Assembly (NCBI RefSeq): GCF_004010195.1
Contig: NC_057753.1
Span: 3,915,866-3,979,865, forward strand
Reading direction: 5' to 3'
Length of the DNA stretch: 64,000 nucleotides
Origin: Chiloscyllium plagiosum
Lineage: Eukaryota
A program made the position numbers and the translations under genes. The stretch's first letter is position 1. Every line of letters starts with the position of its first letter. The notes beneath the pieces were generated by a model. The model saw only the letters and a list, made by a program, of their open reading frames with translations. It did not search any database and was not told the origin of the DNA. Positions 8,646 to 56,128 of this stretch are shown here, in pieces.

Positions 8646-8840
8646 GATCGAAAAGTGTGACGCTGGAAAAGCACAGCAGATCAGGCAGCATCCAAGGAGC
8701 AGCTAACTCGATGTTTTGGGCATGAGCCCTTCATCACCTCTCCTGTTCCTCGGATGCTGCCTGACCTGCTGTGCTTTCCCAGCGTCATGCTTTTCGACCC
8801 TGACTCTCCAGCCTACCTACACAGTCCTCACTTTCTCCAG
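8646..8840. mobile_element. Palindromic Penelope-like terminal fragment (family A), decayed hammerhead motif
   Basis: Inverted arms GCTGGAAAAGCACAGCAG..CTGCTGTGCTTTCCCAGC; minus strand TGATGAAGGGCTCATGCCCAAAACATCG. Confidence 0.75.
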
Positions 8841-9989
8841 GGTACTGCATAAGGCTATTTAATAACGGTCCATTCCGTGGAGGGGGGGGGGGGGGTTAGT
8901 GCATTAGTATCTTTGGAGGATTGTCCAATGAATAGAAAACAAAGCTGGAATGAGGGTGAATCTCTTGGAGCACAGCAATCTGTAATGAGTGGAGCACCAC
9001 AGGGATCATTTATCTAAATGAGGGAAGGCTGCAAAATGCTGCAGCACTGAGTCATTTGGTGGGGGGTGGGGGGGGGGCGGTGGTTCTGGTGCTTGGATAA
9101 CATAAACAAAACTAACATACATGTTCAGCAGGTAGGAAGGAAGGAAAGCAGATGGAATATTAGCATTTATTTCAAAGGGAATGGATTCTAAAAATCAGGA
9201 GGGGTAGCAAAGATTACACAAAGCACTAGTTACACCAGAACAGGAAATACTGTGAACAGCTTTGGTCACCTTATCCAAGGAAAGCTGTACTGGCTTTGCA
9301 GGTAACCCAGAGAAGGTTAATCACAGGTATGGTGAGATTTCTTCTGTTAAATAGTTGACTAGGTTCGGCTGATACTCATTGAGTTTCAGGAAAATGAGAG
9401 GAGACCTTATTGGAACATTGAGGATTCTTAGGGGGCTTTACAAGAGGGGTTTCGAGAGTTCAGTACAAGAGGGCGCAATATCAGAGTAACGGGTGCCCAT
9501 TTAAGACAGAGATGAAGACAAACGTCTTCGCTGGGTACTGAGTCTGCGGAATGCACCTGTAATGACGAGGAATACAAGGCTATCGGCCAAGTGCTGGAAA
9601 ATGGGATCAGAACAGTATGTGTGGTTGTCTTTGACCGAGGAGGAACAGGGCTGTTCATGCTTGGTCATTCAGTATATTCAAGGCGGAGACAGATGGTGTT
9701 TTAAGCAGACGGCAAACTAAGGGTTGTGGGTAAAGACAGGAAAGTGGAGCAGAGAACGATCAGATCAGCCGTGATCCTTGTTGAATGGTGCGGCCAACCT
9801 GATGGGCAGGCTAGCCCACCTCTGCCCCTTACACATGACAGTCCACTTCGAAAATCAAGCATTTACCACCCCATTTCTGGTTACTTGTCACTACATTTTG
9901 TTTTGTATTTGTGTTGCTGCTGCTCCTGTTATTCGTTGAGCTATACATTTTCTGATAGTTCTGTTGTGTGCCACTGCGTTAAATGTCTT

Positions 9990-10570
9990 TTCAGAGTCCA
10001 CGTAAACTACAACATACCATTACCCTCATCAAAGGCCTGTTCCCTCCTCAAAGAATTCCAGGAAGTTAATGCAACGTGACTTTTCCTTGGGAAGTCCATG
10101 CTGCCTCCCTTTAATTAACCCACTTTTGTCCATGTGACTATTCATTCTGTCCTGAATTAATATTTTGAAGGAGTCAGCTGTTAAATTGATCGGTCTGGAA
10201 CTGCTCGGCTTATCCTTCCACCCTTTTTGAAGGGGTGCATGACGTCTGCAATTCTCGAGTCCTCTGGAAGCTACCCGAAGTATAGGAAAGCCAAAATGAT
10301 CATGGTCAGTGCCCCCTGGGGGTGCCACTTTTACTTTCTTCAGAGTGTCTGGGGTGGTTCTCATCCTGTCCCGGCTGCTTTGCAACTTTCAGGGCTGGAC
10401 GTTTATCCGTCGCTTCCTCCTCCAAATTTCAAATACTTCCAGTGACTGAGTTACTTCCTCTGTCATCGCGGCATCGGGGGGACATCGGAGTCCTTCGTAA
10501 TGACTAATGCAAAGTGCTCACTGAACATGTCTGCCGTGCTCTTTGCCACTATGTGTGAATCCCCTTTTTG
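9990..10570 (-). mobile_element. Decayed CR1 ORF2 fragment
   Basis: ORF 10029-10385 contains RPINLT and QHGL..CINFLEFFEE. Confidence 0.75.
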
Positions 10571-11079
10571 GTGCCTTTTTTGTTAAATTCACATGTGCAA
10601 CATGGGAGTCACTGGCTGGCGAGTATTTATTGCCTAACCATAGGAGAATGTGTACAAGGTATGAGCAGGTAGGGAAAGGGGTAGGTTTTGGCTTGTGTGG
10701 GACAAAGGCTCAGCTAGCGTGACATGGATCAGGTAAGAACTTGCAGTAAACAATGAGGTGCTGGAGGCAAGGGTCGTGGGTTAAGGAGGTGAAAAGCATT
10801 CATTATGTAAAGCCAGTTGACAAGGTTAAGACCATTCATTGTATAACTCCAGATGACTTAATCTTTACTGTTGATGCCCACTGAATGTGATGGTCACCCA
10901 ATCAATATAGATTGTTGCCTATTTGGTTGCTGCTCCCTGTCAGTGACGATATAATTCATTAAGAAACTGGTGTTCGAGCGAAGACCGAGAACTCATATCT
11001 CTGTGCACGTGGGCCTGGAATAAAGATGAAGGAAGTAAAGCCGTACTGTGTCTCTGAGTATTTGCTTTGACTGATCCGG

Positions 11080-12380
11080 GGATAGGGAAATGGGACGACA
11101 CATCGATGCCCCTGACAAAGCGGTGTTGAGCTGCCTTCTTGAGTCATTGCGACTCATGCGTATAGTTATACTCACAACACCGTTAGGGAGGGAATTCCAG
11201 CAATGGTGAAGAAACAGCGATACATTTCCAATCCTGGATGCCGAATGGGAGAACTTGCAGGGGGCGGTGTTCCTGTAAAGCTGCCGTCTTTCTCCCTCTC
11301 GTTGGAAGAAGTGGTTGGGGGTTTGCAGTGTGTTGTCGAAGGGTCTTTGGTGAATTATAGACAGTACATATTGCAGCGATGGAGCATTGGTGGTGGAGGG
11401 ACGGGACGCTTATTGGATGAGTTGCCAAGAAAGTGGGCTGCTTTGTCCTGGATGGTGTCAAGCTTGAATGTTCTTAGAGTTGCACTCATCCAGGTAGGTG
11501 GGGAGTATTCCATTACACTGCTGGCCCGTTCCTTGTAAATGGTGAACAGACTTTGGGAAATCAGGACAGGAGTTACATGCTACTAATCTTGGAAATGCTC
11601 TTGTAGCCATTATTTATATGGCAAGTCCAATTGAGCTTCTGGTTGACAGTGGCGGATTCGGTAGTGGTAATGCCATTCAACGTCAAGGGGCAGTGGTTCA
11701 ATTCTCTCTTATTGGAAATGATCATTGCCTGGCATTTCTATGGTGCAAATATTACTTGCCACTGTTCAGCCAAAGCCTGGACATTGGCCAGATCTTGTGT
11801 TTGAGCCTGGACCTCTTTGGTATCTGACGTGTCACGAATGGGACAGAACATTGCGCAGTCATCGGAAAAACATTCCAGTTCTGACCTTGTGACGGAGGGA
11901 AGATCAGTGGAGAAGTAGCCGAAGATGACACAGCCCTGGAGGAACTCCGACAGAGATGTCCGAGAGCTGAGGAGACTTGGAGCTGAGGCGCCTGACCTCT
12001 AATAACCGCAACCATCTTCCTTTGTACCAGGTATGAGTCTTCCCCACCGATTCTCATTGACTGCAGGTTCACTGGGGCTCCTTGATGCCACACTGGGTCA
12101 AATGCAACCTTGACCTAATGGCAGTGATTCTCCCCTCCCCTCTGGAATTCAGCTCTTTTGTAATGTTTTAATCAAATCTGCAATGCGATCAGGGTTAAGT
12201 GACCTGGAGAAACCGAAATTGGGTGTCAGTGAGCAGATTATTACTGAGCATATGCTGCTTGATAGCACTGTTGATGACAGCTTCCATTACTTTAGTGTTC
12301 ATTGATGGGGCAGTAATTGGCCGGGTCGGATTTATCCTGCTTTTTACGGGCAACATATACTTGGGCAATTTCCCATATGG
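11080..12380 (-). mobile_element. Decayed L2/CR1-group LINE RT and 3' region
   Basis: PANYCPI, WHQGA..L.SM.I.G and YLVQRKMVAVI.GQ in minus-strand ORFs. Confidence 0.7.
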
Positions 12381-12829
12381 GCCCTACGCCTCTTTGACCA
12401 ACCTTTAACCAAGCAGGTACCTTACTAAGTGTGGTCAGTCTGAATCTGTGAGGCAAAGCATCAAGGGTTTTCCAATCCATCACCTTCTCCTTTTCCACTC
12501 TTTGTGTCATCAGATTTCAGCAGCACGGATTTGTGAAGAGAGGAGAGAATCTCACACCGTCATACGATACGGTTCAGAGTTTGCTGGAACCGTCAGTTGT
12601 TGGACCATTTCTTGCATTTAATTCAAAGTGTTTATGATTGACATGGGTAAAACAGGAAGAAATGGGAGCAGTAGGTCATTCAGCCCTCTGGGTCTTCTCC
12701 ATCGTTCAATATGTTGATGTCTGATCAGCCATCTCAGTATCCTGTGTCCCACTTTCTCCACGCATCCTTCGATCCCTTTAGCCCCAAGATCTGCACCTGA
12801 CCCCGAACAGCACCATCCCATCCCTGGAG

Positions 12830-13444
12830 CTACTCGTGAACTTGCTGGTGTCTCAGCAGGTTGTACGACTGGGTGAATCCCTTCCCACACACGGAGCAGG
12901 TGAACAGCCTCTCCCCGGTGTGAACCTGCTGGTGCCTCAGCAGGGCAGAGGAGGCAGTGAAGCCCTTCCCGCACTCGGCGCAGGAGAACGGCCTCTCCCC
13001 GGTGTGAACCCGCTGGTGTTGCAGCAGGGCCGACGACTGAGTGAACCCCTTGCCGCACTCGGAGCAGGAGAACGGCCTCTCCCCGGTGTGAACCCGCTGG
13101 TGCTTGGTGAGGTCGGAGGATCGCCTGAACCCAGTCTCGCAGTCGGAGCACCTGAACGGTCTCTCGTCAGTGTGAAGAATTTGATGAGATATCAGCTCCC
13201 TGGAGCATTTGAAGGACTTCCCACAGCCTTGGCAAGCGAACGGTCTCTCCCCCGTGTGGAGCCGCTGGTGCCTCAGCAGGTGAGATGACCGGGGGAATCC
13301 CTTCCCACACACAGAACAAGCGAATGGTCTCTCCCCGGTGTGGACCCGCCGGTGAATTTCAAGGGCGGAGGGGGATTGGAAACCCTCTCCGCAATCTCCG
13401 CACCGCCACGGTTTCCTGCCACGGTGAGCGGCTTTTCCTTTCAT
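12830..13444 (-). CDS. Tandem C2H2 zinc-finger protein, 7 fingers (ZNF gene 2)
   Basis: Seven intact C2H2 repeats. Candidate acceptor ctcattgcacag (AG at 13516-13515); in-frame TGA between acceptor and ATG. Confidence 0.92.
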
Positions 13445-14029
13445 CCTCCGAATTGGGAGACCCAGTCAGATCCTGGTGTCGTCTGTGCTGTCAGCCTCCT
13501 GGCCTTCTAATACACTGTGCAATGAGAACTGGAACAGTAAAAGACGGGTGTGAGGGAGCGGCCACCGAAACACAAAGACATATTGTGAAATGGACTGAAA
13601 TGAATGTAGCCATCTACAGAGATGGAACCGGGGGCGGGAGGTTACAGTGAAAACTGACAGATTGCTGTAAAAAAACGCAACTGATTCATGTCCTTCCAGG
13701 AAGGATACCTGTCACCTGGTCTGGACCCACACAACACTCTGATCTCCCATAATGGAGAGAAAGTGAGGGAGACCGGGGGACTGCGGTGAGACAGATCTTA
13801 AACAGCTGCAACCTGAACAAGAAGATTGACAGAGTCTCCCGAACCCCCAATCCCCTCCACCACCTCAAAAGGACCACGGTAGCAAAAGTTTGTGAAGACC
13901 ACCACAAAACATCCTGACTTGTCTTGAGCAGAAATTTCCTCTGCTTAAACATTGCAAAGACTGAAGCCGTTGACTTTTCAGTCCTCGCTACAAACTCTAC
14001 TCCTTTCCGACGACTCTAGCCCTCTCCCT

Positions 14030-15095: not shown

Positions 15096-15117
15096 CTGAC
15101 TGGGTCTATATATTGGC

Positions 15118-15291
15118 GAGTTTTGAGAAGATTTGTAGCCCAATTTGAGGTTCTGGATGTAGGTTTGCTCGCTGAGCTGGAAGGTTCCTTTTCAGAAGCT
15201 TCGTCCAGAGGTTCACTGAAGATATTATCCAGTATGGTGACAAAACGTCTGAAAATGAACCTTCAAACTCAGTCAGCAAACCTACATCCAA
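15118..15291. mobile_element. Palindromic Penelope-like terminal fragment (family B)
   Basis: Arms GGATGTAGGTTTGCT..AGCAAACCTACATCC; ttcaCTGAAGA..GGTGACAAAACGTCtgaa at 15212-15253; matches the PLE end at 55560-55632. Confidence 0.75.
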
Positions 15292-15825
15292 GGTCTATAT
15301 ACGCCAAGGCCACAAGCTTTGTCTTTTCCTCCCTTAACCTCTCTGCCTCTGACCTTACTTCCCTCAGAGTCATCCTTAAAACTTACTTTTCTGTCTCAGC
15401 TGTGGTTCCCTGTCTTACAGTGTGGCCCTGTGTCAAAAGTCGCTTTATAACATATCTATGAATGAAATGAATTATTTTATTCTTCAGTAGGTCTCATCTA
15501 AATACAAATTACTCTTGTCGGTTTGGACACTGATCATAATGCCTGGTTCTGTCATAATACATGGATGAGTACCTTGTAACTGTTGACCTAACAGCATTGC
15601 AGGAGCACTTTTACCATGGCATTTGTTCAAACATGGACAACTGGGGATTGGCAATAATTGTTTCTCTCTCGACTGAAACCAGCAGAGTTAATGTTTCACT
15701 CGTGTTTCACTAACACAGGGTGAAATATGGAATAAAATTGGTGCAGAATTTGGTCAATACAAGGTCAGAAGTGGAAAAGAAATCGACAATAGCATAGGAG
15801 AAACAATTCCTGATGGCGAATTTCA

Positions 15826-16359: not shown

Positions 16360-16850
16360 TAGATTAGATTAGATTCCCTACAGTGCGGGGACAGGCATCT
16401 GGCCCAACCAGTCCACACCGACTCTCCAAAGAGTAACCCACCCAGACCCATTGTCGTAACCTACATTTACCCCTGAGTGGGGCACACGTATGGGCCCCAA
16501 CTATGCCTGTCTCTTTGTTGGCTACGTAACACCGACTCTCCAAAGAGTAACCCACCCAGACCCATTGTCGTAACCTACATTTACCCCTGAGTAATGCACC
16601 TAACCTGCCCATCCCTGGGCACTATGGGACAATTTAGCACGGCCAATCCACCCTAACCTGCCCATCCCTGGGCACTATGGGACAATTTAGCACGGCCAAT
16701 CCATCCTAACCTGCACATCCCTGGGCACTATGGGACAATTTAGCACGGCCAATCCACCCTAACCTGCACATCCCTGGGCACTATGGGACAATTTAGCACG
16801 GCCAATCCATCCTAACCCGCACATCCCTGGACACCATGGGACAATTTAGC
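16360..16850 (-). mobile_element. HE1-type SINE 3' half with a 53-bp tandem expansion and an inserted PLE fragment
   Basis: (TCTAA)n tail; 53-bp unit x~4.8 at 16598-16850; 64-bp duplication 16415-16478 / 16529-16592. Confidence 0.85.
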
Positions 16851-16851
16851 A

Positions 16852-18820: not shown

Positions 18821-19021
18821 TCCTTCATATGAGAGAAACAACATTTACTTCTGACCCCAGTCAAGTCTGCTCCAGAAACTTCAAAGATCTTTCACTCCCT
18901 GCGATTTCTGATTTAAAATAATTCCTCAATTACTCTCAACAAAAAGCAAATCAGATAATCAAACGGTGCAAAAGAGGTCCTTTGACCCATCAAGACTGTA
19001 CCTTCTAAAAATACACTATGA

Positions 19022-19238
19022 GGAGAAAGTGAGGTCTGCAGATGCTGGAGATCAAAGTTGAAACTTTATTGCTGGAACAGCACAGCAGGTCAGGCAGCAT
19101 CCAGGGAACAGGAGAATCGACGTTTCGGGCACAGGCCCTTCTTCAGGAATGAAGAAGGGCCTGTGCCCGAAACGTCGAATCTCCTGTTCCCTGGATGCTG
19201 CCTGACCTGCTGTGCTGTTCCAGCAATAAAGTTTCAAC
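19022..19238. mobile_element. Palindromic Penelope-like element (family A) with hammerhead motifs
   Basis: Near-perfect inverted repeat 19057-19238; TSD AAAAATACACTATGA (19007-19021 / 19239-19253). Confidence 0.85.
19119..19146 (-). ncRNA. Minimal type I hammerhead ribozyme motif
   Basis: CUGAAGA-A-GGGC-CUGU-GCCC-GAAACGUC: intact core, 4-bp stem II, palindromic ACGU stem III. Confidence 0.7.
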
Positions 19239-19599
19239 AAAAATACACTATGACCTACATTAGTCCCATAACTGTAAAGTTATGTCCCTTTGTTATTGAC
19301 CAACGGCCTTCTGTTCAACCTATCCAGTCTGCTAATACTCAGAAATACCTCGATCGGGTCCCCTCTCAAATTTCCTGAGCTAATCCAGTCTCTTTCCATC
19401 GCTAAAATGCTCTATTCCAGACAGCATCCTGGTAAATCTTCTACGCATCCTCCCAAGTGCAACCTCAGTGATCCGAACATCAATTATCCAAAGTTTGGAT
19501 TATCCGAACAAAATCTCAAGGTCCCAAAAACATTTTATGAAATTTAAATTAAAGCACAGAGAGAGCAGGCAGCCAGGGCTGGCAGCAGGAGCAGGGTCG

Positions 19600-19905
19600 C
19601 CAGGGGAAACCCTGACCCTGTTATTACCCCCCACCAGGGGAATCCTGTCCCTGCTATTACCCCATTGCCAGGGGAACCCTGTCCCTGTTTTTACCCCATT
19701 GCCAGGGGAACCCTGTCCCTGCTATTACCCCCTACCAGGGGAACCCTGTCCCTGCTATTACCCCCCACCAGGGGAACCCTGTCCCTGCTATTACCCCCCA
19801 CCAGGGGAACCCTGTCCCTGCTATTACCCCCCGCCAGGGGAACCCTGTCCCCGCTATTACCCCATCGCCAGGGGAACCCTGTCCCTGCTATTCCCCCCGC
19901 CACGG
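19600..19905. repeat. 33-bp minisatellite, 9 copies
   Basis: Unit CCAGGGGAACCCTGTCCCTGCTATTACCCCCCA with variants. Confidence 0.95.
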
Positions 19906-19959
19906 AAACTCTGATTAGTTCTCCAAACAATGAGTTTTTCTAACAAACTCCTCTCCGCC

Positions 19960-22045: not shown

Positions 22046-22409
22046 TCTCATTCCCCAGCTAACATCCTGGTCCACAGATAAATCCATCTGAATAATTTCT
22101 GCTCCATCAGTCTGTACTCCAGCAAAGGATGTTGTGAATAGAAAAACCAATCAGCAGTTATGCAATACCAACTCACCTCCTGACTCCCCAAAACCAGTCC
22201 ATCATCTCCAAGGCCCTGTCCAGGAGTACATTGGTGCGCTCTTTGCTTTCCTGGGTGAGTTAAACGACAAACTTAGGTGAAAAAGCAAGGACAGCTGGGA
22301 CTGCAAGCTGTGAAGGCAGAATCTATACACTGCAGAATAAGATGGACAGGTTAAATGAACTGATGAGGCAGAAATGTTTCAGATGGATTTGTCTTGACTT
22401 TTGTGGGCA

Positions 22410-22490
22410 GGAGAAAGTGAGGTCTGCAGATGCTGGAGATCAAAGTTGAAACTTTATTGCTGGAACAGCACAGCAGGCCAGGCAGCACCC
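22410..22490. mobile_element. Penelope-like terminal fragment (family A)
   Basis: Almost identical to 19022-19100. Confidence 0.8.
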
Positions 22491-22899
22491 ATAAGATGGA
22501 CAGGTTAAATGAACTGATGAGGCATAAATGATTCAGATGGATTTGTCTTGACTTTTGTGGGCAGGACATAGCTGAGGGATTATCCATATTTTGGAGAGAT
22601 GTCAGTGTTGCACCTTTATTGGAACAGCCTGGTACAGTAAAATGAAAAGAGACAGTTTCAATCCTGGGATTAAGAATAATAACTTTGCAAATGTGTGTTT
22701 TCAGGTTTCTGCAAGTGGGGGGGGGGTTTGCATTTGGGAAATTAAATGAGTTGTTAACAAGGTAGTGAACGTGACGCCAGTGAGGAGACCCAACAGCGTC
22801 CAGGACAAAGCTGATTTTTCTTTTTGTTTTTATTTTCTTCTTGGAGCAGCCCCATGCACACCCTCCATCACTGATCCACAGCAGCTGCAGCCTGGCCCA

Positions 22900-23614: not shown

Positions 23615-24100
23615 TAGAATAGAATCCCTGCAGTGTGGAAACAGGCCCAACAAGTCCACACCAATCCTCCGAAGAGTCACCCACCCTATTATCCTCTGAT
23701 TTGTAGATGCCGGTGTTGGACTGGGGTGCACAAAGTTAAAAATCACACAACACCAGGTTATAGTCCAATAGGTTCCAATTAGTGCTACTAGTGTGCTTCC
23801 AATTAAACCTGTTGGACTATAACCTGGTGTTGTGTGATTTTTAACTATTATCCTATATTATCCTGACTAATCTACCGAGCCTACATATGCATGTATCCGA
23901 ACACAATGGGCAATTTAGCACGGCCAATTCACCTTAACCTGCACACCTTTGGGTTGTGGGAGGAAACTAGAGCAAACCTACGCCGACACAGGCTTGGTGG
24001 GGAGAACGTGTAAACTCCACACAGACATTCACCCAAGGCTGGAATCAAACCCGGGTTCCTGGTGCTGTGAGGCAACAGTGCTAACCACTGAGCCAACTAT
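23615..24100 (-). mobile_element. HE1-type SINE interrupted by a PLE palindrome
   Basis: SINE tail 23615-23695 and body 23845-24100. Confidence 0.85.
23696..23845. mobile_element. Palindromic Penelope-like fragment (family C)
   Basis: Arms AGTTAAAAATCACACAACACCAGGTTATAGTCCAA and its reverse complement; TSD CTATTATCCT. Confidence 0.8.
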
Positions 24101-24159
24101 GCCGGCAAGTTGCCAGAAGGAGGATTTTACACGTGCAACTCAGTCACAGCATGCACAGA

Positions 24160-24365
24160 AACACAAATAAAACAAAAAACTGGGGATTCTGCAACAAAAC
24201 CAGAAATTGCTGGAGCAAGTCAGCAGGCTTGGCAGCACCCGTGGAAATGGTGTGGGTCAGTGACAGCAGGTCTGGAGAAGGGTTGCCGGACATGAAATGT
24301 TATCTTTGCTTTCTCTCCACAGACGGTGGCATTTTCCAGCAATTTCTGTTTCTTTTGTATTTCAG
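24160..24365. mobile_element. Decayed Penelope-like palindrome (family D)
   Basis: CAGAAATTGCTGGA..TCCAGCAATTTCTG arms; degenerate CTGGAGAAGGGT..GAAATGTT. Confidence 0.55.
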
Positions 24366-24531
24366 AACATCACACCATGCACATGAAGAAAGTGAACAGG
24401 TGCTTGGGAATACAAAAAGGCTAATGTAATTAATTCCTGTAATGGGGGTTTACTCATAAGGAAAGGTTTGACAGACTCAGCCTGCATCCATTGCACATTA
24501 GAAGAATGAGAGTTGATCTTCTTGAAACATA

Positions 24532-24945: not shown

Positions 24946-25057
24946 TGTAATGGTCAGGAGTCTTAACAGGGTGGACACCTTGTGAGAAAGACTGGAACTA
25001 GTTTAAATTTAAAATCTCTCTCATTTAAGAGAAGGATGAGGAGGATTTCCTTTTCCC

Positions 25058-25160
25058 CAGTTCTGAAGAAGGGTCACTGAATTTGAAACATTAACTCTGC
25101 TTTCTCTCTGCAGGTGCTGCAACAAATGCTGAGTTTCTACAACAGTATCTGTTTTTGTTA
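25058..25160 (+). mobile_element. Penelope-like fragment (family D) with decayed hammerhead motif
   Basis: agttCTGAAGA-AGGGTCACTGAATTT-GAAACATTaact; stem I agtt/aact. Confidence 0.6.
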
Positions 25161-25884
25161 CCTTTTCTTTCAATCAGTCTTTGGAAACCTTTTCCACAGA
25201 GACTGGAGGACGTCAATGAATACTATTAAAGCAAATATAGATAGATTTGAGGGAGCAGGCATTAATGTGATTTGAGGTCACAATTAGATCAGCCATGATC
25301 CAACAATATGGTGGGAGGCAGACGTGAAGGGCTGAATGGCTGGAAGTGATATGGTAACATGTTAACAACACCGACATCCCCACATACTCAACTTAATCAC
25401 ATACTTTAGACATATTGCTCGTGCTCTTTGATCACTGACTGAAAATGCTGCAAGTCAGGATTGTGCCAAATGGCTCTGTCGGAGCACCTTCACCAAGCTG
25501 TGGTTAAGAAGATGGTGTTCCACTGTTTGGTAGAACAATCCACTGGGGAGTGGCGTTATCTAAACTTTGTCTTAGATCCAATGCCCACAAACAAATAAGT
25601 TAATGCCTCCACACAAATCTTTGTTTGTAAAATAACATATAGACAAACACTGTCCACGCAAAATAATCAAGTTACTTTCCTCAGACTCTAACAGAAAGCA
25701 AACAGCAAACCTTCCCCAGTCCGCGAAGTGAAGAACGGATTTCAAGTGTCGTATAGGAGCTGGAAATATCAGATGCACATCGAAAGACTTAGAAGAATAA
25801 AAGAAAAGAAGATAATTGCTGAGATGATGTTTCTCCTCATGGAAGAGCCTAGGATTAAAAGGAATTAAGGGGCGCCAAGTTAAG

Positions 25885-29129: not shown

Positions 29130-29310
29130 TCATTCCTTCCCCCCAATTTATCTCTCCACCCTGGAGGCTTCCTGTCTCTATTCCTGATGAAGGGCTTTTG
29201 CCCAAAATGTCGATTTTCCTGCTCCTCGGATGCTACCTAACCTGCTGTGCTTTTCCAGCACCACTCTACTGTTGACTCTAATCTCCAGCATCTGCAATAC
29301 CCCACCTCTA
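29130..29310 (+). mobile_element. Penelope-like terminal fragment (family A), decayed hammerhead
   Basis: CTGATGA-AGGGC-TTTT-GCCC-AAAATGTC from 29184; flanked by CCTTA(A/G)AAATATGCC-like duplication. Confidence 0.75.
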
Positions 29311-29524
29311 CCTTAGAAATATGCCCCCTAGTTTTCAACTCTGCCACTGTAGGGAAAAGACCATTCATGATTATCTGTGTCCCTCGTGATTTTATAAACC
29401 TCAGTAAGGTTGCCCCTCAATATCTTACGTATCTGTGAAAAAGTCCCATTTTTATATCTCAAGCCATCCATTCCCAGCAACATCCTGGTAAATATTTTCT
29501 GAATTCCCCCCCGCCAGAATAATA

Positions 29525-29985
29525 AATCATAGAATCCCTAGTGTGGAAACAGGCTCTTCAGCCTGAAGAAGGGCTTATACCCGAAACGTCGATTCTCCTG
29601 TTCCCTGGATGCTGCCTGACCTGCTGCGCTTTTCCAGCAACACATTTTCAGCTCTGATCTCCAGCATCTGCAGCCCTCACTTTCTCCTCTTCAGCCCAAC
29701 AAGTCCACACCGACTCTCTGAAGAGTAAACCCACCCAGACCTATTCCCCTAGCCTATATTTACCCCTGACTAATGCACCTAACCTACACATCCCCAAACA
29801 CTATGGGGCAATTTAGCATGGCCAATTCACGTAACCTGCACATCTTTGGACTGTTGGAGGAAACCAGAGCACCCGGAGGAAACCCACGCAGACATAGGGA
29901 GAATGTGCAAACTCCACACAGACAGTTGCCCAAGGCTGGAATCGAACCTGGGTCCCTGGTGCTGTGAGGCAGCAGTGCTAACCAG
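29525..29985 (-). mobile_element. HE1-type SINE interrupted by a PLE fragment
   Basis: SINE tail and body separated by 29563-29686; TSD CTCTTCAGCC. Confidence 0.88.
29563..29590 (+). ncRNA. Minimal hammerhead ribozyme motif (PLE family A)
   Basis: CUGAAGA-A-GGG-CUUAUA-CCC-GAAACGUC; core intact. Confidence 0.6.
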
Positions 29986-31330: not shown

Positions 31331-32399
31331 CAAGGCCAAGTGGTATCGTCAAAGCTGAGATGGAGATATTTTGAAATCCATAAGGGAATCGAGGATTCTG
31401 GGAAAAGGCAAGAAAGTGAAGTTGAGGATCATCTGATCAGCTGTGATCTTCCTGAATGGTGGAGCGACTCAATGGGCTGAATGATCTATCCCTGCTCCTA
31501 TGTCTCATGGACCCATTATTAAATTCTGCTCCACTTCAGTCACGACATTCTCCTACTTTCTGCACCCTCAACTCAATGGGATGCCTTTGCTTCGGAGACA
31601 GGGAGGACTGCAGGTGCTGGAAGTTAGAGAGCATCTGAGGGACAGGAAAGTCAATGTTTTGTCTGACCTGCCATGCCCTTCCAGCTTCAGATCAATACCT
31701 TTGCTTCACTGGTTTGGGCCTCTCCCTTCAATACTGACACACTTCCCCAACTTGCCTGTCCCTCCCACACACACAATTACCATGACAACAGCCCTCACCA
31801 AAGTGTTCCAAATGACAACTGTTTAATTGTTTCTATAGGCTGTCCACATCACTTGGGAGTCAACATTAGTAGGCTCCACACCTCTCCTTGCCTCTGGAGT
31901 TCATGAGCGTCTCTGCAAAGCTCCATTCTTGACGCCTGACCTCCCCTCTTCCTTTGCACACTTCCTTCTGCCCCTTCGTCTCCATGTCAGCCTTCTCTCA
32001 GTGCTGCTGCTGCTGTTACTCTCAGTATCCAAAGGCCAGAGTCATTGTTACTAGTGTCAAGAGCAGAACGGGGCTGACTCAGTTCAGTTAGGGCTGAGGC
32101 TGGCTCTCAGGCTGGACCCTATCAATTCTGGCAGCTCACTCAGGCTCATGTGTCAATCCTGCCATCGCAACAATCAATTTGGAACATCTTCGCTGCACTG
32201 TAGCAAGAACATTCTCCCTCAGATAAGGGACTAAAATTGCACACTATTCAGTTTGCAGCCTTCATAGTGCCCTGTCTAACTGCAGCAAGACATCCTTGTT
32301 CCTGTACTCAAACCATCTTGTTATGAAGGTCAACATACAGTCTATCTTCATTACCACCTGATACATCTAAGCACTCCCTTTCAGTGAATTGTGTACAAG

Positions 32400-33285: not shown

Positions 33286-33929
33286 TTTGTTGAACCCCAA
33301 GGTTCCGCTACTCCTGAACGCCCCTTACAAATTGTACCGTCAAGCCTGTATTGTCTCTTCATGTATCTTCTACCAAAGTGCAACAGCTCTCGTTTCTCTG
33401 CTTTGAAATTCCTCTGCCAAGTCCTGCCCATTTGGCCAACCTGTTGGTGTCCTTTCTGATGTCGCTCAGCATGTGGAGAGAGAGAACCGAGTTAATATTT
33501 CAAGTCCCGTGATCCCTCTTCAGAACTGAAGATTCGTTTCAGATTTCCAGTGCCCACAATCCTTTGTTTTATGACCAAAAGATTCAGGTTCAGCTGCTCG
33601 ACAGGAGCGACGTGAGAGGCTGTTTAGCCCAATTGGCAAGTGGAAAGGGAGGGGAGTGGCAGAGACAGTCAATCAGGTTATCCCAGTTTCAGTGATGAAG
33701 AATCGTCACGAGCTCCTCATTCTTGTTGGAGTGAACTTAAAGGAGACTGGGAGATGGAGTACCTTTCCCAGAGGAACAAAGCTTTGTTAGAGACTTAAAA
33801 AGAGTCAGCATATTTTGTGTTCCCGAAAACACAATTTAACTAACTAGAATTTAACACATATAACTCGGCTGGACTTTATTAACATCTACAGAAAACAGAA
33901 CCCAATGTTTGTCTGGATGTGACAAAAAG

Positions 33930-34905: not shown

Positions 34906-37439
34906 CAACGATATTACAATTCGAAATAAACTGTTGCTCACCTAGCACTAAATGATGGATTTGCAATCTGATAATTTAGCAACAGCATAGGAGTTGAAAG
35001 AGATGGCGGTGAGGCTTGGCTTGGTATTGTCAGTGTGCATCCGAAATCTAATAGTCTGGTTTTGGAGAATGTCGCCCAGTGGCACTGTGTAGATAGAAAG
35101 AAGGGGAGTTATTATTCATTTGGGGGAAATATGCATTCGCAAGCCCCTTGCTGTAAGTCTACAGTAGTGAGTAGGTTCTTTCCTGATTTAATATTTTATT
35201 GAGATCTGTCTCTTGATTAAAATTTAAAAATATAAACCATAAGTACTGAAGCTCTTTTTTTAGAGCAAAAAGATGGTGCTATTTTCTGGGCCTGTAGATT
35301 GTGAAGGAGCAAAGATGGCCTTTTGTGGAGTGATGTGCTCTTCCTGTCAGATGTGGGAGTTTAGGGAGCGTTTCCATGTTACTGATGATTATGTCTGCAG
35401 TTAGTGTTTTTGGTTGCAAATCCTATCAAATCGCATGGATCAGTTGAACCTGCAGTTTGAGGCAATGAGGCATTTACAAGAGCTGGGGGTGTGATGAATG
35501 GCAGTTATAGGAAGGGAGAAAAGCCACAGATACAGTAAGGTAGATGGGTTAACTCCAGGAAAGGTAGGAGGGGTAGGCAGGTAGCGCTGGAATCTCATGT
35601 GGCTATCTCCATCTCAAACACGTATGCTGTTTTGGAAAATGTAGGGGATGATGGACTGTCAAGGAATATAGCACGAACAGCCAAGTTTCTGGTATGGAGA
35701 AAGGCTCTAATGTAATGAGGTGTACGTCAGGTTCCAAGCGTCAATTGAGATAGGGACTCGCTAGTCAGAGGCAGAAACAGATGTTTCTGCAGTCAGCAGT
35801 GAAAAATCAGAATGGTGTGTTGCCTCCCTGGTGCCTGGATCAAGGATGTCTCAGAGAGGGTGCAGAGTGTTCTCAAAGGGGAGAGGGCATTGTCCACATT
35901 GGAACCAACAATATAGGAAGGGAAAAGGATGAGATTCTGAAGGAGAATATAGAGAGTTAGGTAAGAATTTAAAAAGGTCCTCGAGAGTAGTAATATCTGG
36001 ATTACCACGAGCTCGTGAGGGCAGGAATAGGAGGATAGAGCAGATGAATGCGTGACTGAGGAACTGTGCAGGGAAGAAGTGTTCACATTTTTGGATCTTT
36101 GGAATCTCTTCTGTGTAGGATTGACCTGTACAAGAAGGACGGATTGCACCTGAATTGGAAGGAGACTAATATACTGGCAGGGAAATTTGCCAGAGCTGTT
36201 CAGGAGAATTTAAACTAGGAAGGTAGGGGGACCCAGAGAGATAGTGAGGAAAGAATCAATCTGTTGGGAAAGGGAATGAGTCCAATAGACTGGGCAGTCA
36301 GGAACAAGGTCGGACTGTTAAATTAAACTGCAATTATTTCAATGCAAGAGGCCTAACAGGAAAGACAGATGAACTCAGTGCATTGTTAGGAACATGGGAC
36401 TGGGATATCATGGCAATTACAGAGACATGTCTCAGGGATGGACAGGAGTAGCAGCTTAATGTTCCAAGATACAAATGTTACAGGAAGGACAGAAAAGGGG
36501 TGGCGAGGAGGGGGAGTGGCATTTTTGACAAGGGATAGCATTACAGCTGTACTTAGGGACAATATTCCTGGGAATACTTTCAGGGACATTATTTGGGTGG
36601 AACTGAGAAATAAAAAAAGGATTATCACCTTACTGGGATTGTATTATACACCCCCTAATAGTCAGCGCAAAATTGAGAAACAAATTTGTAAGGAGATTTA
36701 GTTATCTGTAAGAATAATAGGGTGATTATGATCGGGGATTTTAACTTTCCAAACACAGACTGGGACTGCCAAAATGTTAAGAGTTTAGATGGAGAGGAAT
36801 TTAAGTGTGTACAAGAACATTTTCTGATACAGTATGTGGATGTTCATTCTAGAGAAGGTGCAAAACATGACCTACTCTTGGGAAATAAGGCAGGGCAGGT
36901 GACTGAGGTGTCAGTGGGGGAAACTTTGGGGCCAGCGACCATAATTCTATTAGTTTTAAAATAGTGATGGAAAAGGATAGACCAGATTTAGAAGTTGAAG
37001 TTCTACATTGGAGAAAGGCCAATTTTGACGTTATTAAGGAAGAACTTTCAAAAGCTGATTGGGGGAGCAGATGTTCACAGGTAAAGGGACGGCTGGAAAA
37101 TAGGAAGCCTTCAGAAATGAAATAACGAGATTCCAGAGACAGTATATTCCTGTCAGAGTGAAAGGAAAGGCTGGTAGGTATAGGGAATGCTGGATAACTA
37201 GAGAAATTGAAGGATTGGTTAAGAAAAAAAAGGAAGCATATGTCAGATACAGACACCAGAGATCGAATGAATCCTTAAAAGAGTATAAAGGCAGTAGGAG
37301 TATACTTGAGAGACAAATCAGGAGGGCAAAAAGGGGGCATTAGATAGCTTTGACAAATAGAATTAAGGAGAATCCAAAGGGTTTTACAAATACATTAAGG
37401 ACAAAAGGGTAGCTAGGGAGAGAATAGGGCCCCTTAAAG

Positions 37440-37518
37440 GGCTTATGCCCAAAACGTCGATTCTCCTGTTCCTTGGATGCTGCCTGACCTGCTGCGCTTT
37501 TCCAGCATCACATTTTCA
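37440..37518 (+). mobile_element. Penelope-like fragment (family A) nested in CR1
   Basis: GGGCTTATGCCCAAAACGTCGATTCTCC..; TSD CCCCTTAAAG. Confidence 0.8.
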
Positions 37519-40376: not shown

Positions 40377-40570
40377 ATTTGGAGATGCCAGTGTTGGACT
40401 GGGGTGTACTAAGTTAAAAATCACACAACACCAGGTTATAGTCCAACAGGTTTAATTGGAAGCACACTAGCTTTCAGAGTGACCACCCGATGAAGGAGCG
40501 TCGCTCCGAAAGCTAGTGCTTCCAATTAAACCTGTTGGACTATAACCTGGTGTTGTGTGATTTTTAACTT
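40377..40570. mobile_element. Palindromic Penelope-like fragment (family C) with hammerhead-like motif
   Basis: cacCCGATGA-A-GGAGC-GTC-GCTCC-GAAAGCTAgtg at 40484-40518; TSD CTTTTTCAGG. Confidence 0.8.
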
Positions 40571-41160: not shown

Positions 41161-42030
41161 TTACTTGTGAGCTCGTTGATGCCTCAGCAGGTTGGACGAC
41201 TGAGTAAACCCCTTTCCGCACTCTGAGCAGGTGAACGGCCTCTCGCTAATGTGAACCCGCTGGTGACTTAGCAGGTGAGACGGCCGAGTGAATCTCTTCC
41301 CACACTTGGAGCAGGGGAACGGTCTCTCCCCGGTATGAATTCGCTGGTGATTGAACAGGGTCGAAGATTGAGTGAAACCCTTCCCGCACTCTGAACAAGT
41401 GAAAGGCCTCTCTCCGGTGTGGCAGCGCCGGTGGACAGTGAGATCAGATGAGTGCTTGAACCCGATGCTGCACTGAGAGCACCTGAATGGCTTCTCATCA
41501 GTGTGAATACGTTGATGGGACATGAGTTCCCCAGAACTTTTATAGCACTTCCCACAGTCCAAGCACTTAAAGGGTCTCTCGCCAGTGTGAACCCGCTGAT
41601 GCCTCAGCAGGTGTGAATGTTGAGTGAATCCCTTCTCACACTCGGGGCAGGTAAACGGCCTTTTCCCAGTGTGAGATCGCTGGTGAGTCAGCAAGTTGGA
41701 TGACTGAGTGAATCTCTTCCCACACTCAGGACAGGTGAATGGTCTCGCCCCAGTATGAACTCGCTGGTGCTCCAGCAGATTGGCTGACTGAGTAAAGCCC
41801 TTCCCGCACGTGGAACAGATGAACGGTCGCTCCCCTGTGTGACCACGCCGATGGATTTCTAGCACTGACGGTGAAATGAATCCCTTCCCACAGTCCACAC
41901 ATTTCCATGGCTTCTCTCTTTTCGAACTGCATTTGTGTCGTGATAGGCCAGATGATTGGGTAAAGCTTCGTTCACACACAGAACATGCGTACGGTTTTTC
42001 CCTGATGTGAACACTGTTCTTTTCTTCCAT
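41161..42030 (-). CDS. Tandem C2H2 zinc-finger protein, 10 fingers with the first degenerate (ZNF gene 3)
   Basis: aacATGG start with an in-frame TAG six codons upstream. Finger 1 lacks the last His (HKCSS). Candidate acceptor ttttatgtcag at ~42240. Confidence 0.92.
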
Positions 42031-42507
42031 GTTCAAAATCCAGTGCTATTTAGAAACAAAAAAACTGAAATTGATGGAAAAAACTTAGATCTGGCAGCAT
42101 CTGTGGAGAGAAAGCAGAGTTCATATTTCAGGTCCTGTGACCCTTCTTCGGAACAGATATTCAGGTTGAGATAAAATGTTCAGAACCTGGTGAGTTGTTT
42201 CCTGACTGCAAATCCCCCTTTGCTCAGACCTTGGTGATACTGACATAAAACAGAGGAAAGGCATATGAGAAGCAAAAACTAACAAGGCAGAAAGGTACAT
42301 TATGAAATTGAGCTAAATGAATCAGGTAGTTTGCACTAGAAAAAGTTACTGATTGTCATCAAAACCCAACCAGTTCATTAATGTCTTTCAGAAGAAGGAA
42401 CCCTGCTGCCTGGTGAGAAACTGCAGAAGATTCTGGTGTCTACAAGTAAACATGGTCCAGAAGTGTTGACAAAATCTCGCAAACCGTCAACCTCTGCCAA
42501 GTAGAAA

Positions 42508-43305: not shown

Positions 43306-43572
43306 ATGGGTGGCACAGTGGTTCGTACCACAGTCTCACAGCACCAGAGACCCAGGTTCGATCCCAACCTCGGGCGACCGTCTGTGTGTACATTCTGCCC
43401 CCATGTCTGCATGGGTTTCCTCCCACAATCCAAAGATGTGCAGGTTAGGGGTGAATTGGCCACGCTATATTGTCCGTAGTGTTCAGGGATGTGTAGTTTA
43501 GGGTGAATTGGCCACACTATATCGCCCATTGTGTTCAGAGATGTGTGAATTGGCCACACAATATTGCCCATA
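43306..43572 (+). mobile_element. HE1-type SINE 5' part grading into the tandem array
   Basis: tRNA-like head, V core, then degenerate copies of the 52-bp unit. Confidence 0.85.
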
Positions 43573-46500
43573 GTGTTCAGGGATGTGTAGGTTAGGGTGA
43601 ATTGGCTATGCTATATTGCCCACAGTGTTCAGGGATGTGTAGGTTAGGGTGAATTGGCTATGCTATATTGCCCACAGTGTTCAGGGATGTGTAGGTTAGG
43701 GTGAATTGGCTATGCTATATTGCCCACAGTGTTCAGGGATGTGTAGGTTAGGGTGAATTGGCTATGCTATATTGCCCACAGTGTTCAGGGATGTGTAGGT
43801 TAGGGTGAATTGGCTATGCTATATTGCCCACAGTGTTCAGGGATGTGTAGGTTAGGGTGAATTGGCTATGCTATATTGCCCACAGTGTTCAGGGATGTGT
43901 AGGTTAGGGTGAATTGGCTATGCTATATTGCCCACAGTGTTCAGGGATGTGTAGGTTAGGGTGAATTGGCTATGCTATATTGCCCACAGTGTTCAGGGAT
44001 GTGTAGGTTAGGGTGAATTGGCTATGCTATATTGCCCACAGTGTTCAGGGATGTGTAGGTTAGGGTGAATTGGCTATGCTATATTGCCCACAGTGTTCAG
44101 GGATGTGTAGGTTAGGGTGAATTGGCTATGCTATATTGCCCACAGTGTTCAGGGATGTGTAGGTTAGGGTGAATTGGCTATGCTATATTGCCCACAGTGT
44201 TCAGGGATGTGTAGGTTAGGGTGAATTGGCTATGCTATATTGCCCACAGTGTTCAGGGATGTGTAGGTTAGGGTGAATTGGCTATGCTATATTGCCCACA
44301 GTGTTCAGGGATGTGTAGGTTAGGGTGAATTGGCTATGCTATATTGCCCACAGTGTTCAGGGATGTGTAGGTTAGGGTGAATTGGCTATGCTATATTGCC
44401 CACAGTGTTCAGGGATGTGTAGGTTAGGGTGAATTGGCTATGCTATATTGCCCACAGTGTTCAGGGATGTGTAGGTTAGGGTGAATTGGCTATGCTATAT
44501 TGCCCACAGTGTTCAGGGATGTGTAGGTTAGGGTGAATTGGCTATGCTATATTGCCCACAGTGTTCAGGGATGTGTAGGTTAGGGTGAATTGGCTATGCT
44601 ATATTGCCCACAGTGTTCAGGGATGTGTAGGTTAGGGTGAATTGGCTATGCTATATTGCCCACAGTGTTCAGGGATGTGTAGGTTAGGGTGAATTGGCTA
44701 TGCTATATTGCCCACAGTGTTCAGGGATGTGTAGGTTAGGGTGAATTGGCTATGCTATATTGCCCACAGTGTTCAGGGATGTGTAGGTTAGGGTGAATTG
44801 GCTATGCTATATTGCCCACAGTGTTCAGGGATGTGTAGGTTAGGGTGAATTGGCTATGCTATATTGCCCACAGTGTTCAGGGATGTGTAGGTTAGGGTGA
44901 ATTGGCTATGCTATATTGCCCACAGTGTTCAGGGATGTGTAGGTTAGGGTGAATTGGCTATGCTATATTGCCCACAGTGTTCAGGGATGTGTAGGTTAGG
45001 GTGAATTGGCTATGCTATATTGCCCACAGTGTTCAGGGATGTGTAGGTTAGGGTGAATTGGCTATGCTATATTGCCCACAGTGTTCAGGGATGTGTAGGT
45101 TAGGGTGAATTGGCTATGCTATATTGCCCACAGTGTTCAGGGATGTGTAGGTTAGGGTGAATTGGCTATGCTATATTGCCCACAGTGTTCAGGGATGTGT
45201 AGGTTAGGGTGAATTGGCTATGCTATATTGCCCACAGTGTTCAGGGATGTGTAGGTTAGGGTGAATTGGCTATGCTATATTGCCCACAGTGTTCAGGGAT
45301 GTGTAGGTTAGGGTGAATTGGCTATGCTATATTGCCCACAGTGTTCAGGGATGTGTAGGTTAGGGTGAATTGGCTATGCTATATTGCCCACAGTGTTCAG
45401 GGATGTGTAGGTTAGGGTGAATTGGCTATGCTATATTGCCCACAGTGTTCAGGGATGTGTAGGTTAGGGTGAATTGGCTATGCTATATTGCCCACAGTGT
45501 TCAGGGATGTGTAGGTTAGGGTGAATTGGCTATGCTATATTGCCCACAGTGTTCAGGGATGTGTAGGTTAGGGTGAATTGGCTATGCTATATTGCCCACA
45601 GTGTTCAGGGATGTGTAGGTTAGGGTGAATTGGCTATGCTATATTGCCCACAGTGTTCAGGGATGTGTAGGTTAGGGTGAATTGGCTATGCTATATTGCC
45701 CACAGTGTTCAGGGATGTGTAGGTTAGGGTGAATTGGCTATGCTATATTGCCCACAGTGTTCAGGGATGTGTAGGTTAGGGTGAATTGGCTATGCTATAT
45801 TGCCCACAGTGTTCAGGGATGTGTAGGTTAGGGTGAATTGGCTATGCTATATTGCCCACAGTGTTCAGGGATGTGTAGGTTAGGGTGAATTGGCTATGCT
45901 ATATTGCCCACAGTGTTCAGGGATGTGTAGGTTAGGGTGAATTGGCTATGCTATATTGCCCACAGTGTTCAGGGATGTGTAGGTTAGGGTGAATTGGCTA
46001 TGCTATATTGCCCACAGTGTTCAGGGATGTGTAGGTTAGGGTGAATTGGCTATGCTATATTGCCCACAGTGTTCAGGGATGTGTAGGTTAGGGTGAATTG
46101 GCTATGCTATATTGCCCACAGTGTTCAGGGATGTGTAGGTTAGGGTGAATTGGCTATGCTATATTGCCCACAGTGTTCAGGGATGTGTAGGTTAGGGTGA
46201 ATTGGCTATGCTATATTGCCCACAGTGTTCAGGGATGTGTAGGTTAGGGTGAATTGGCTATGCTATATTGCCCACAGTGTTCAGGGATGTGTAGGTTAGG
46301 GTGAATTGGCTATGCTATATTGCCCACAGTGTTCAGGGATGTGTAGGTTAGGGTGAATTGGCTATGCTATATTGCCCACAGTGTTCAGGGATGTGTAGGT
46401 TAGGGTGAATTGGCTATGCTATATTGCCCACAGTGTTCAGGGATGTGTAGGTTAGGGTGAATTGGCTATGCTATATTGCCCACAGTGTTCAGGGATGTGT

Positions 46501-46685
46501 AGGTTAGGGTGAATTGGCTATGCTATATTGCCCACAGTGTTCAGGGATGTGTAGGTTAGGGTGAATTGGCTATGCTATATTGCCCACAGTGTTCAGGGAT
46601 GTGTAGGTTAGGGTGAATTGGCTATGCTATATTGCCCACAGTGTTCAGGGATGTGTAGGTTAGGGTGAATTGGCTATGCTATATT
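43573..46685 (+). repeat. 52-bp tandem array, ~60 apparently identical copies
   Basis: Unit GTGTTCAGGGATGTGTAGGTTAGGGTGAATTGGCTATGCTATATTGCCCACA; 59 full units plus a partial one. Confidence 0.97.
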
Positions 46686-52396: not shown

Positions 52397-52399
52397 AAA

Positions 52400-52790: not shown

Positions 52791-52899
52791 TGAATCCATA
52801 ACCCTCCATAACTGCACCCCCAAAGCCCCGATCATTTCTCTGCCATTGACGATTTAATTCCTCTCTCTCTAGCAATGTCTCTGTAGTCTAGTGTTTAAA

Positions 52900-55090: not shown

Positions 55091-55189
55091 ATTTCACTGT
55101 TACTTCTGCCTACAGTGTTTAAATGAGACTGTGTGCAGCTGTACTACCAGCTACGCACAGGTCGAAGGATTTTGTGTAATCTCAGGACG

Positions 55190-55500
55190 AGAGAGACGTT
55201 GTTATGTGGTGGACAGCCTGGAATCTGTTAGGATGGAGATAACAAAGAAATGGATGAGAGTTTTCGCAGCCAGTGAGCTGAGACTAGGGTGGATTTGGGT
55301 GGTTTTACTGAGGTGGAAGTCGGTGGTCTTGGTGACAATGGGGATATGTGGTGGGAAATATTTCACTCGAGTTGTGAACAGCCTGTTCAGTTCCACACCA
55401 TTACCAGAGAGGGGGCTGGAGTCAGTGGGGGGGGAGTTAAGACAGTGCCTTCAGTCTTCATAAACACTTAAACAGAGAAAGTTTCTGCTCATCCGTTACT
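55190..55500 (-). mobile_element. Decayed L2-like fragment
   Basis: SLSSLAAKTLIHFFVISILTDS. Confidence 0.6.
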
Positions 55501-55556
55501 GGGTGTCAAACAAGTCGGGATAGTGTGTGACTGAAAGGTGATAGTGTTCACATACG

Positions 55557-56128
55557 TATATGTAAGTTAGCTCGCTGAGCTGGAAGGTTTGTTTTCAGAC
55601 GTTTCGTCACCATGACTAGGTAAGGTCATCAGGGAGAGTCTCTGGTGAAGCACTGGTGGTATGTCCTGCCTCTCTGTTTATAGGTCTTGGTTTCTCAAGG
55701 TGGGTGTTGTCATTTCCAGTTCTTTTTCTCAGGGGGAGGTAGATAGGGTCTGTATCGATGTGTTTATTGATGGAGTTTTGGTTAGAATGCCAGGCCTCTA
55801 AGAATTCTTGTTTGGCCTGTCCTAGGATATGTGTGTTGTCCCAGTCAAAGTGGTGTCCTCCTTTGTCTGTATGTATAGAAACTAGTGACAGTGTGTCGAC
55901 TTTTGGTGTTCATGTATCCCTGGTGGCAAGTGTCCTGCTAGTTTTTTTTTACAGTTCCTCTATGGTATCTTGTAAATGACATTAGTTTTGCTGGTAGTAT
56001 CTAACGGAACCTTTCGGTTCATTAGTCACTGTTTAAGTGTGTTGGTAGGTGTGTGGGCTACCACATACACCTGGTACCCTGGACCTCTAGGTAATGGAGG
56101 TTTGGTAGTGGTTTCAGAGATGCTGTTA
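55557..56128 (-). mobile_element. Penelope-like element 3' part: GIY-YIG endonuclease remnant and terminal hammerhead
   Basis: Minus strand: ISETT..VAHTPTNTLKQ, TNVIYKIP, IHEH, HHFDWDNTHILGQAKQ, EFLEAWHSNQNSINKHIDTDPIY. Confidence 0.85.
55598..55632 (-). ncRNA. Minimal hammerhead ribozyme motif (PLE family B)
   Basis: CUGAUGA-CCUUACC-UAGUCAU-GGUGAC-GAAACGUC. Confidence 0.6.

Follow-up and report, generated by a model that had tools for sequence, protein, structure and literature searches.

The window analysed here, a stretch of 64,000 nucleotides from the shark Chiloscyllium plagiosum (contig NC_057753.1, positions 3,915,866 to 3,979,865), contains short and mostly damaged insertions that bear motifs of the minimal type I hammerhead ribozyme, and these insertions are likely the 5'-truncated ends of Penelope-like elements (PLEs) left after an early stop of the reverse transcriptase (RT). 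An earlier note on this DNA had placed such hammerheads on short PLE ends in four repeat families (A to D), and the repeat that it described is present at all 12 positions that it named. The PLE origin is shown for family B, whose hammerhead follows the remains of a GIY-YIG endonuclease, and for families A, C and D we infer it from the target-site duplications, the two 3' ends and the inverted arms of the insertions.

Profiles built from the copies (nhmmer) recognised 16 insertions (8 A, 2 B, 2 C and 4 D), i.e., 16 per 63.5 kb of called bases, and 13 hammerhead-like cores were identified in the window. The surrounding sequence is vertebrate-type DNA with C2H2 zinc-finger frames and numerous fragments resembling long interspersed elements (LINEs). 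Six head-to-head pairs and further family members at 636, 22410, 23698 and 31594 go beyond what had been noted before. The insertions are the following, where "duplication" means target-site duplication and all positions are those of the window:

636..673 (+): A, tail-only fragment without hammerhead (blastn 92% over 38 nt; nhmmer E 5e-7); no duplication of at least 9 nt
8648..8838 (both arms): A, head-to-head insertion; minus arm 8737-8648 with core changes C3>G and G12>A and the short 3' end; plus arm 8739-8838, beginning 4 nt past the predicted cut, with the long 3' end; no duplication found
15113..15291: B, head-to-head insertion; plus-arm core at 15216 (G12>A), 4-bp stem I, predicted cut after 15249; minus arm with a 41-nt tail; 10-nt duplication (15103-15112 / 15292-15301)
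19022..19238: A, head-to-head insertion with arms identical at 88/89; minus-arm core from 19146, predicted cut after 19119, 35-nt tail; 15-nt duplication (19007-19021 / 19239-19253)
22410..22491 (-): A, fragment starting 16 nt past the cut site; flanking duplication of at least 60 nt
23698..23844: C, head-to-head insertion without core; 38-nt tail on one arm; 12-nt duplication
24158..24369: D, head-to-head insertion; decayed core at 24272 (+; A6>G); minus-arm tail of 29 nt; 14-nt duplication with 1 mismatch
25056..25165 (+): D, core at 25063; stem I has 4 bp, stem II includes three G-U pairs and the stem III palindrome is broken
29130..29316 (+): A, about 50 nt preceding the core at 29184 (G12>A, C15.2>U); long 3' end; duplication of at least 9 nt
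29563..29688 (+): A, core intact; target DNA in place of the 5' strand of stem I; predicted cut after 29590; 10-nt duplication
31594..31695: A-like, decayed and rearranged insertion (nhmmer E 8.5e-5); 13-nt duplication with 1 mismatch
33457..33530 (-): D, core at 33523 with no deviating base; stem I has 4 bp, stem II is weak and the palindrome is AUAU
37437..37518 (+): A, 5'-truncated at stem II (no CUGANGA), embedded in a decayed LINE-like stretch; short 3' end; 10-nt duplication
40377..40567: C, head-to-head insertion; plus-arm core at 40487 (U4>C), predicted cut after 40515; minus-arm tail of 37 nt; 10-nt duplication
42046..42157 (-): D, core at 42151 (U4>C, G at N17); followed closely on its strand by a zinc-finger frame
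55560..56124 (-): B, 5'-truncated Penelope/Poseidon-type element; decayed GIY-YIG C-terminus (56124-55631), then the hammerhead with its core from 55632 and predicted cut after 55598; stems I and II each with a broken first pair

Hammerhead motifs and family relationships

The descriptor used to search the window consists of CUGANGA, an optional bulged base, stem II, GAAA, a loop-less palindromic stem III, UH and stem I, and it yielded 2, 6 and 11 matches at 0, 1 and 2 core deviations, respectively. The corresponding means of 100 dinucleotide shuffles were 0.01, 0.19 and 2.54, and the real count was reached by none of them at any level, so that a chance origin of the motif is rejected. The stem rules had been loosened once the copies were known (a previous version gave 1, 3 and 4 matches), and the shuffles were run under the same loosened rules. 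Away from the family cores, 55390 among the 6 matches, and 55390, 19036 and 22424 among the 11, are probable chance matches. The Rfam search of the whole window gave no hammerhead family at E<=1, its nine rows being sub-threshold matches to microRNAs (miRNAs) and transfer-messenger RNA.

G12 is the general base of the hammerhead according to the literature. There is no core deviation in four of the 13 copies, i.e., 19146 (-), 29563 (+), 33523 (-) and 55632 (-), while eight have one to three and 37440 lacks the 5' core. Taking core and stems together, 12 of the 13 copies are defective, nine of them in the core and three more through broken or weak stems: in 29563 the 5' strand of stem I has given way to target DNA, in 55632 stems I and II each have a broken first pair, and in 33523 stem II is weak. 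The sole fully intact hammerhead of the window is the family A motif at 19146 (-). Many of these defects are seen in the sequence to be transitions at CpG sites.

The A sequence previously reported, GAAACGUC, is intact at 19119 (both arms) and at 29563, but it carries G12>A at 8737, 29184 and 37440, and the CUGANGA ascribed to the copy at 37440 is absent. Likewise, stem I of B (uuca/ugaa) stands at 15216, whereas only two of its four pairs form at 55632; C reads CCGAUGA (U4>C) instead of CUGANGA, and the ACGU palindrome is absent from all four D copies. As the palindrome of stem III, A and B have ACGU, C has AGCU and two D copies have AUAU; in four of the 13 copies the palindrome is broken. 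The bulged base after A9 together with the G10.1-C11.1 pair is present in A (6/6) and in C; this pair is G-U in all four D copies and broken in both B copies.

According to predicted folding, the stems of the 19146 hammerhead have a probability of 0.0 within the whole insertion, and stem II has 0.98 in the isolated motif. The hairpin z-scores are -24 for 19022..19238 and -19 for 40377..40567. Two copies of the 19146 motif pair via the palindrome region on cofolding, a prediction of low specificity, and the single-strand folding of six short motifs never gave the hammerhead as the minimum-energy structure, a result that is expected for this class and uninformative. With these core or stem defects in 12 of the 13 copies, and with a long hairpin as the predicted fold of the intact one, the solo copies of the window are predicted to be inert. 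The 29184 and 29563 copies, which are the only neighbours on the same strand, would make a poor dimer, because one lacks G12 and the other lacks stem I.

The four repeats had been described as unrelated, but to judge from their sequences A and D are related, which leaves three lineages. Searches with the D profile recover A copies (E 8e-6 to 5e-5), those with the A profile recover one D arm that consists of the tail only (E 2e-4), and those with the B or C profile recover no other family. The region common to A and D is the tail downstream of the cut site, and pairwise tests restricted to the tails gave a modest result, with p<0.05 in 6/9 A-D pairs and in 1/28 of the other cross-family pairs.

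Stem I differs in sequence among the families yet stays paired. For four family representatives the bases are Watson-Crick in 14 of 16 pairs, the best of 24 permutations (mean 5.25), in a test that is small and in which A and D are not independent. The cross-family pairs were counted by script on core-anchored columns; MAFFT misaligned B and C against A/D. The A/D-type core was also found at 46 metagenome loci, and its pattern had no match in viral contigs. At 29 non-shark loci with this core, the stem I covariation was matched by none of 500 shuffles (best of seven registers; 56% of cells pair), and the three stem II pairs are fixed by the search pattern and uninformative on covariation. A covariance model built from 29 of 47 non-shark matches, from which near-duplicates and short-flank matches were left out by eye, detects A at E 1e-11 to 0.03 and one D copy at E 0.008, whereas 15216 appears only at E 2. 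As a separate observation, 15 of the 29 aligned non-shark motifs (loci L005, L009, L014, L016, L026, L029 and L046 among others) have no pair at the first position of stem I, where A-A or A-G is common, and the following pairs hold.

Insertion anatomy and the link to Penelope-like elements

Target-site duplications of at least 9 nt were found at 10 of the 16 insertions, compared with 2 of 150 random positions, and 29184 and 29563 are separate insertions, each with its own duplication. The head-to-head inverted pairs make up six insertions in which all four families are represented, and every one of them has a one-sided overhang (41, 41, 35, 38, 29 and 37 nt, the first being measured after seven flank bases were removed by eye). 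Two discrete classes of 3' end, separated by about 35 nt, are seen in the A arms, at about +60 and +95-97 when counted from the cut site. On the same scale, the 5' ends of seven A arms lie between +39 and -36 or farther upstream, as estimated by local alignment to a reference that extends only to about -37. Five of eight aligned A arms begin upstream of the cut site, a count biased by the fact that copies were spotted through their hammerheads. No common stem-loop was found on folding the tails, a clean 5-bp one being present in C only.

None of the 20 tandem-repeat rows of the window overlaps a hammerhead and there is no hammerhead-bearing tandem array, nor does the window hold a full-length PLE master copy in partial tandem. 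A retrozyme array, with consecutive tandem units each holding a complete hammerhead, is thus rejected for the window. The units had been called truncated or non-autonomous, and the scattered 5' ends together with the lack of such an array favour truncation. Their proposed size of 100-200 bp does not fit B at 55598, which covers about 560 bp (55560-56124) including the GIY-YIG remnant. The 82-nt A fragment within 22337-22570 departs from the usual duplication of 9-15 nt: the one around it measures at least 60 nt, and by eye some 76 nt.

The B copy at 55598 extends upstream into a decayed GIY-YIG C-terminus (56124-55631) with a frameshift and stops. This remnant matches the RT-bearing shark protein P0003 (tblastn E 3e-31), its RT part being truncated away, and the closest named proteins are from Stegostoma and Chiloscyllium. 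The Pfam scan of the 97-aa B remnant gave no match; P0006 matches RVT_1 above the cut-off and GIY-YIG weakly. The C-termini of P0001 and P0003 (TDDVT and TEDVT, respectively) are compatible with a hammerhead core read in frame. By eye, P0003 and P0006 have no extra cysteine cluster before the endonuclease, which points to Penelope/Poseidon, and B is Poseidon-like. In addition, the predicted host-gene isoforms P0001, P0002, P0004 and P0007, three of them annotated shark proteins, end in one PLE endonuclease C-terminal peptide, which suggests that they are exonised or mis-annotated B remnants.

Concerning A and D, the metagenome loci were used as a proxy. Eight of the 46 core-bearing loci have PLE protein matches, and in seven of these eight the motif lies downstream on the same strand; three of five scanned frames match Pfam GIY-YIG. 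A linker zinc finger of Neptune is described in the PLE literature, and as a cysteine cluster precedes GIY-YIG (by eye) in some frames of the proxy loci, a Neptune-like affiliation is likely, on this indirect evidence, for A and D. When the open frames of 18 of the 46 loci were compared with the window by tblastn, the result was one 17-residue match at 16475, off any hammerhead, plus weak rows. This patch of about 50 nt (16475-16525) translates to a PLE RT-like motif, GTRMGPNYACLFVGY (tblastn E 0.001), and sits in a repeat resembling short interspersed elements (SINEs), between two duplication copies of about 63 nt (16414-16590); it looks like a sequence templated from PLE RNA.

Family A is very abundant in the source species and in a related one. 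The contig pieces placed on 29030-29760, mostly on its two A copies, number 146,330 (X1), 102,072 (X5) and 123,649 (X13, the related species); these counts differ from copy numbers and include a share taken by a SINE-like repeat in the same stretch. The summed depth of X1 has G12 at 71% and C15.2 at 69% at the 29184 copy, and the stem II G at 98% at 29579, the intact bases being the majority across family A. The RNA run X21, of which about 2% was read, gave 5273 reads on 29030-29760 in both orientations. Among the best-supported rows, there was no pile-up of X21 read ends at the predicted cuts 29590 or 29211 and one at 29371, which in a fragmented poly(A) library is weak evidence.

Proposed mechanism and alternative explanations

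In the scheme that we favour, the element protein would nick the target and begin reverse transcription downstream of the ribozyme, where there are two alternative start sites (PMC11167929). If it began only once, the product would be a single-arm copy, and priming of both target strands would produce a head-to-head insertion whose ends differ, one being long and the other short. With one or two complementary DNAs (cDNAs) terminated early, single-arm or head-to-head relics would remain. The template was likely uncleaved RNA, since most arms extend 5' past the predicted cut site. In a full tandem parent, two motifs would pair by the 4-nt palindrome and cleave slowly as a dimer, perhaps aided by protein (PMC4209133, PMC11167929). 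For the Poseidon element of the anole, Frangieh et al. described that both target strands are nicked and extended, that two reverse-transcription start sites define the tail, that the main template is uncleaved RNA and that the ribozyme cleaves solely in the presence of the protein. The window agrees with that scheme in its two classes of 3' ends and in the five of eight A arms that start upstream of the cut.

Several observations weigh against truncated PLE ends as the origin of the insertions. No RT or endonuclease remnant was found beside the A, C and D copies of the window, and a protein search with the 40-aa frame of the A tail returned no candidate. Six of the 16 insertions have no duplication of at least 9 nt, and no empty-site joint was found among the best 15 of 1031 joints in read contigs placed on the A stretch. 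Stem I of A is weak (2 pairs, U-U, 1 pair). The non-shark covariance model misses C and 55632, and, being derived from the A/D pattern, its A matches are not independent. Finally, the roughly ten-fold fall in depth and the loose ends upstream of the A core would also fit a SINE-like unit.

This last point leads to an unlikely alternative, in which A, and perhaps C and D, would form a unit of its own, about 130 nt long and non-autonomous, either a solo pseudo-LTR (long terminal repeat) or similar to a non-LTR retrozyme. A tandem-master transcript would be cut by dimeric hammerheads and mobilised by a PLE protein in trans, and the window copies would be its monomer offspring. The summed depth is 3.6 million at the A core and 0.36 and 0.043 million in the next 25-nt bins upstream, and loose ends peak just before the A core and at the long 3' end; this steep fall, with most 5' loose ends just upstream of stem I, and the very high abundance of A are consistent with such a unit. 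The same holds for a joint from 29688 back to 29180, of the head-to-tail type but with intervening letters that are not known, in 30, 7 and 27 contigs (X1, X5 and X13), according to which head-to-tail A pairs probably exist in a small minority, and for the retrozymes derived from pseudo-LTRs that Li et al. 2026 report in one chondrichthyan. However, the window has no hammerhead-bearing tandem array, and a cleaved unit should start at +1, whereas five of eight A arms start upstream of it and the 5' ends are scattered; moreover, the drop in depth is confounded with subfamily divergence upstream of the core.

Within the truncated-PLE scheme, it is conceivable, although we give it little credence, that the stem III palindrome serves mainly as an RNA-pairing device for insertion, beyond cleavage alone. 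Two uncleaved RNAs would be held together for a dimeric PLE protein, with priming at the long site on one strand and at the short site on the other; each polymerase would come to a halt at the paired ribozymes or close to them, and the cDNAs would join head to head. This would explain the combination of long and short ends in 6/6 insertions (1 in 64 for independent and equal choice) and the junctions around the ribozyme. On the other hand, ribozyme core mutants left in vitro insertion unchanged (PMC11167929), the one-sided tail is already published, and PMC3846280 proposes self-priming instead. The pairing proposal was not found in the literature on Penelope twin priming, as judged by titles or the start of abstracts. 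If true, it would make the PLE insertion mechanism testable from the many palindromic insertions of the shark, by sequence alone.

It is very improbable that one or more copies are domesticated ribozymes regulating the neighbouring zinc-finger genes. The X21 RNA reads map to A both ways, and the D copy 42046-42157 lies in sense before a zinc-finger start codon, but this copy has U4>C and G17, the intact A copy is predicted to be sequestered, and the lack of X21 end pile-ups at 29590 or 29211 counts, weakly, in the same direction. The idea that the palindromic copies are DNA elements of the MITE (miniature inverted-repeat transposable element) type or miRNA-type hairpin genes, with an incidental likeness to hammerheads, is the least credible of all and largely refuted: despite the near-perfect hairpins (z -24 and -19) and the sub-threshold Rfam miRNA matches at 15171, 19087, 23747 and 40443, all Rfam scores are far below the gathering thresholds, there are no fixed symmetric terminal inverted repeats, the arms are asymmetric by 29-41 nt, the junctions vary by copy, the duplications are 9-15 nt and single arms occur.

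Comparison with known systems and other features of the window

Minimal hammerhead ribozymes (min-HHRs) of metazoan PLE pseudo-LTRs were described by Cervera and de la Peña 2014 (PMC4209133), and the review PMC6765202 credits their cleavage as dimers also to Lünse et al. According to PMC4209133, a genome may hold several covarying families, solo copies derived from truncated elements and close opposite-strand pairs. The window resembles these PLE min-HHRs in its type I topology without loop 3, the palindromic 15.2-16.2, the extra base between 9 and 10.1, the G10.1-C11.1 pair of A and C, the covarying families, the mostly single copies of truncated elements and the close opposite-strand pairs, and it differs from those of schistosomes in that stem II of A has 4 bp instead of 7-8 bp (PMC4209133). 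By sequence and predicted structure, the motifs are members of the PLE min-HHR class, whose motif, dimer model, tail and inverted ends were already published.

The canonical insertion of endonuclease-bearing (EN+) PLEs is an inverted 5'-truncated copy with a one-sided tail of 30-40 bp and duplications of 8-10 bp (PMC3846280; bioRxiv 10.1101/2021.04.23.441226; PMC11167929). The head-to-head arms, the single-end tail and the variable duplications of the window, as well as the B hammerhead at the end of the GIY-YIG frame, follow this pattern, whereas the arms have only 50-130 nt and a whole insertion is a hairpin of 150-220 nt without coding sequence. Non-LTR retrozymes, defined in bioRxiv 10.64898/2026.07.22.740005 as tandem arrays with a complete ribozyme per unit, are likewise short, non-coding, related to pseudo-LTRs, equipped with type I hammerheads and reported in one chondrichthyan; unlike them, none of the window copies is tandem, and the head-to-tail joint occurs in a small minority of A contigs only.

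We found no publication describing these shark families, which Repbase, subscription journals and supplements, outside our search, may list. The published ribozyme class is thereby extended to shark repeat families that were not found described. In PMC4209133, 4,000-9,000 motifs are described as remarkable, a number that family A on its own seems to surpass, the A figures being read counts and not copy numbers. The density of insertions and the more than 100,000 A contig pieces suggest one of the largest hammerhead-motif loads of a vertebrate, nearly all likely inert. The families are of use in repeat annotation, where palindromic copies mimic miRNA hairpins, and their main value is a large natural set of PLE insertion junctions, as the steps after priming are still unproven.

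The window has four C2H2 zinc-finger frames, two per strand (1577-2464, 12830-13465, 41161-42045 and 56453-57283). On one side of the D copy 42046-42157 (-) is the start codon near 42030, on the other a motif that recurs in the zinc-finger paralogue at 56453; a splice acceptor could come from the tail of this copy, which is rich in pyrimidines and has AG as its last bases. By eye, the predicted cut of D copies (e.g., 25085-25115) overlaps a branch-point-like TTAAC, which is followed by a pyrimidine tract and a CAG about 20 nt on; splicing and cleavage could be alternatives in the D parent element. Among the tandem repeats, an array of 62.7 copies of a 52-bp unit with 98% identity and without hammerhead occupies 43435-46685, with related 53-bp repeats at 16599-16851, and two distinct GC-rich 33-bp minisatellites lie at 19598-19913 and 22929-23138.

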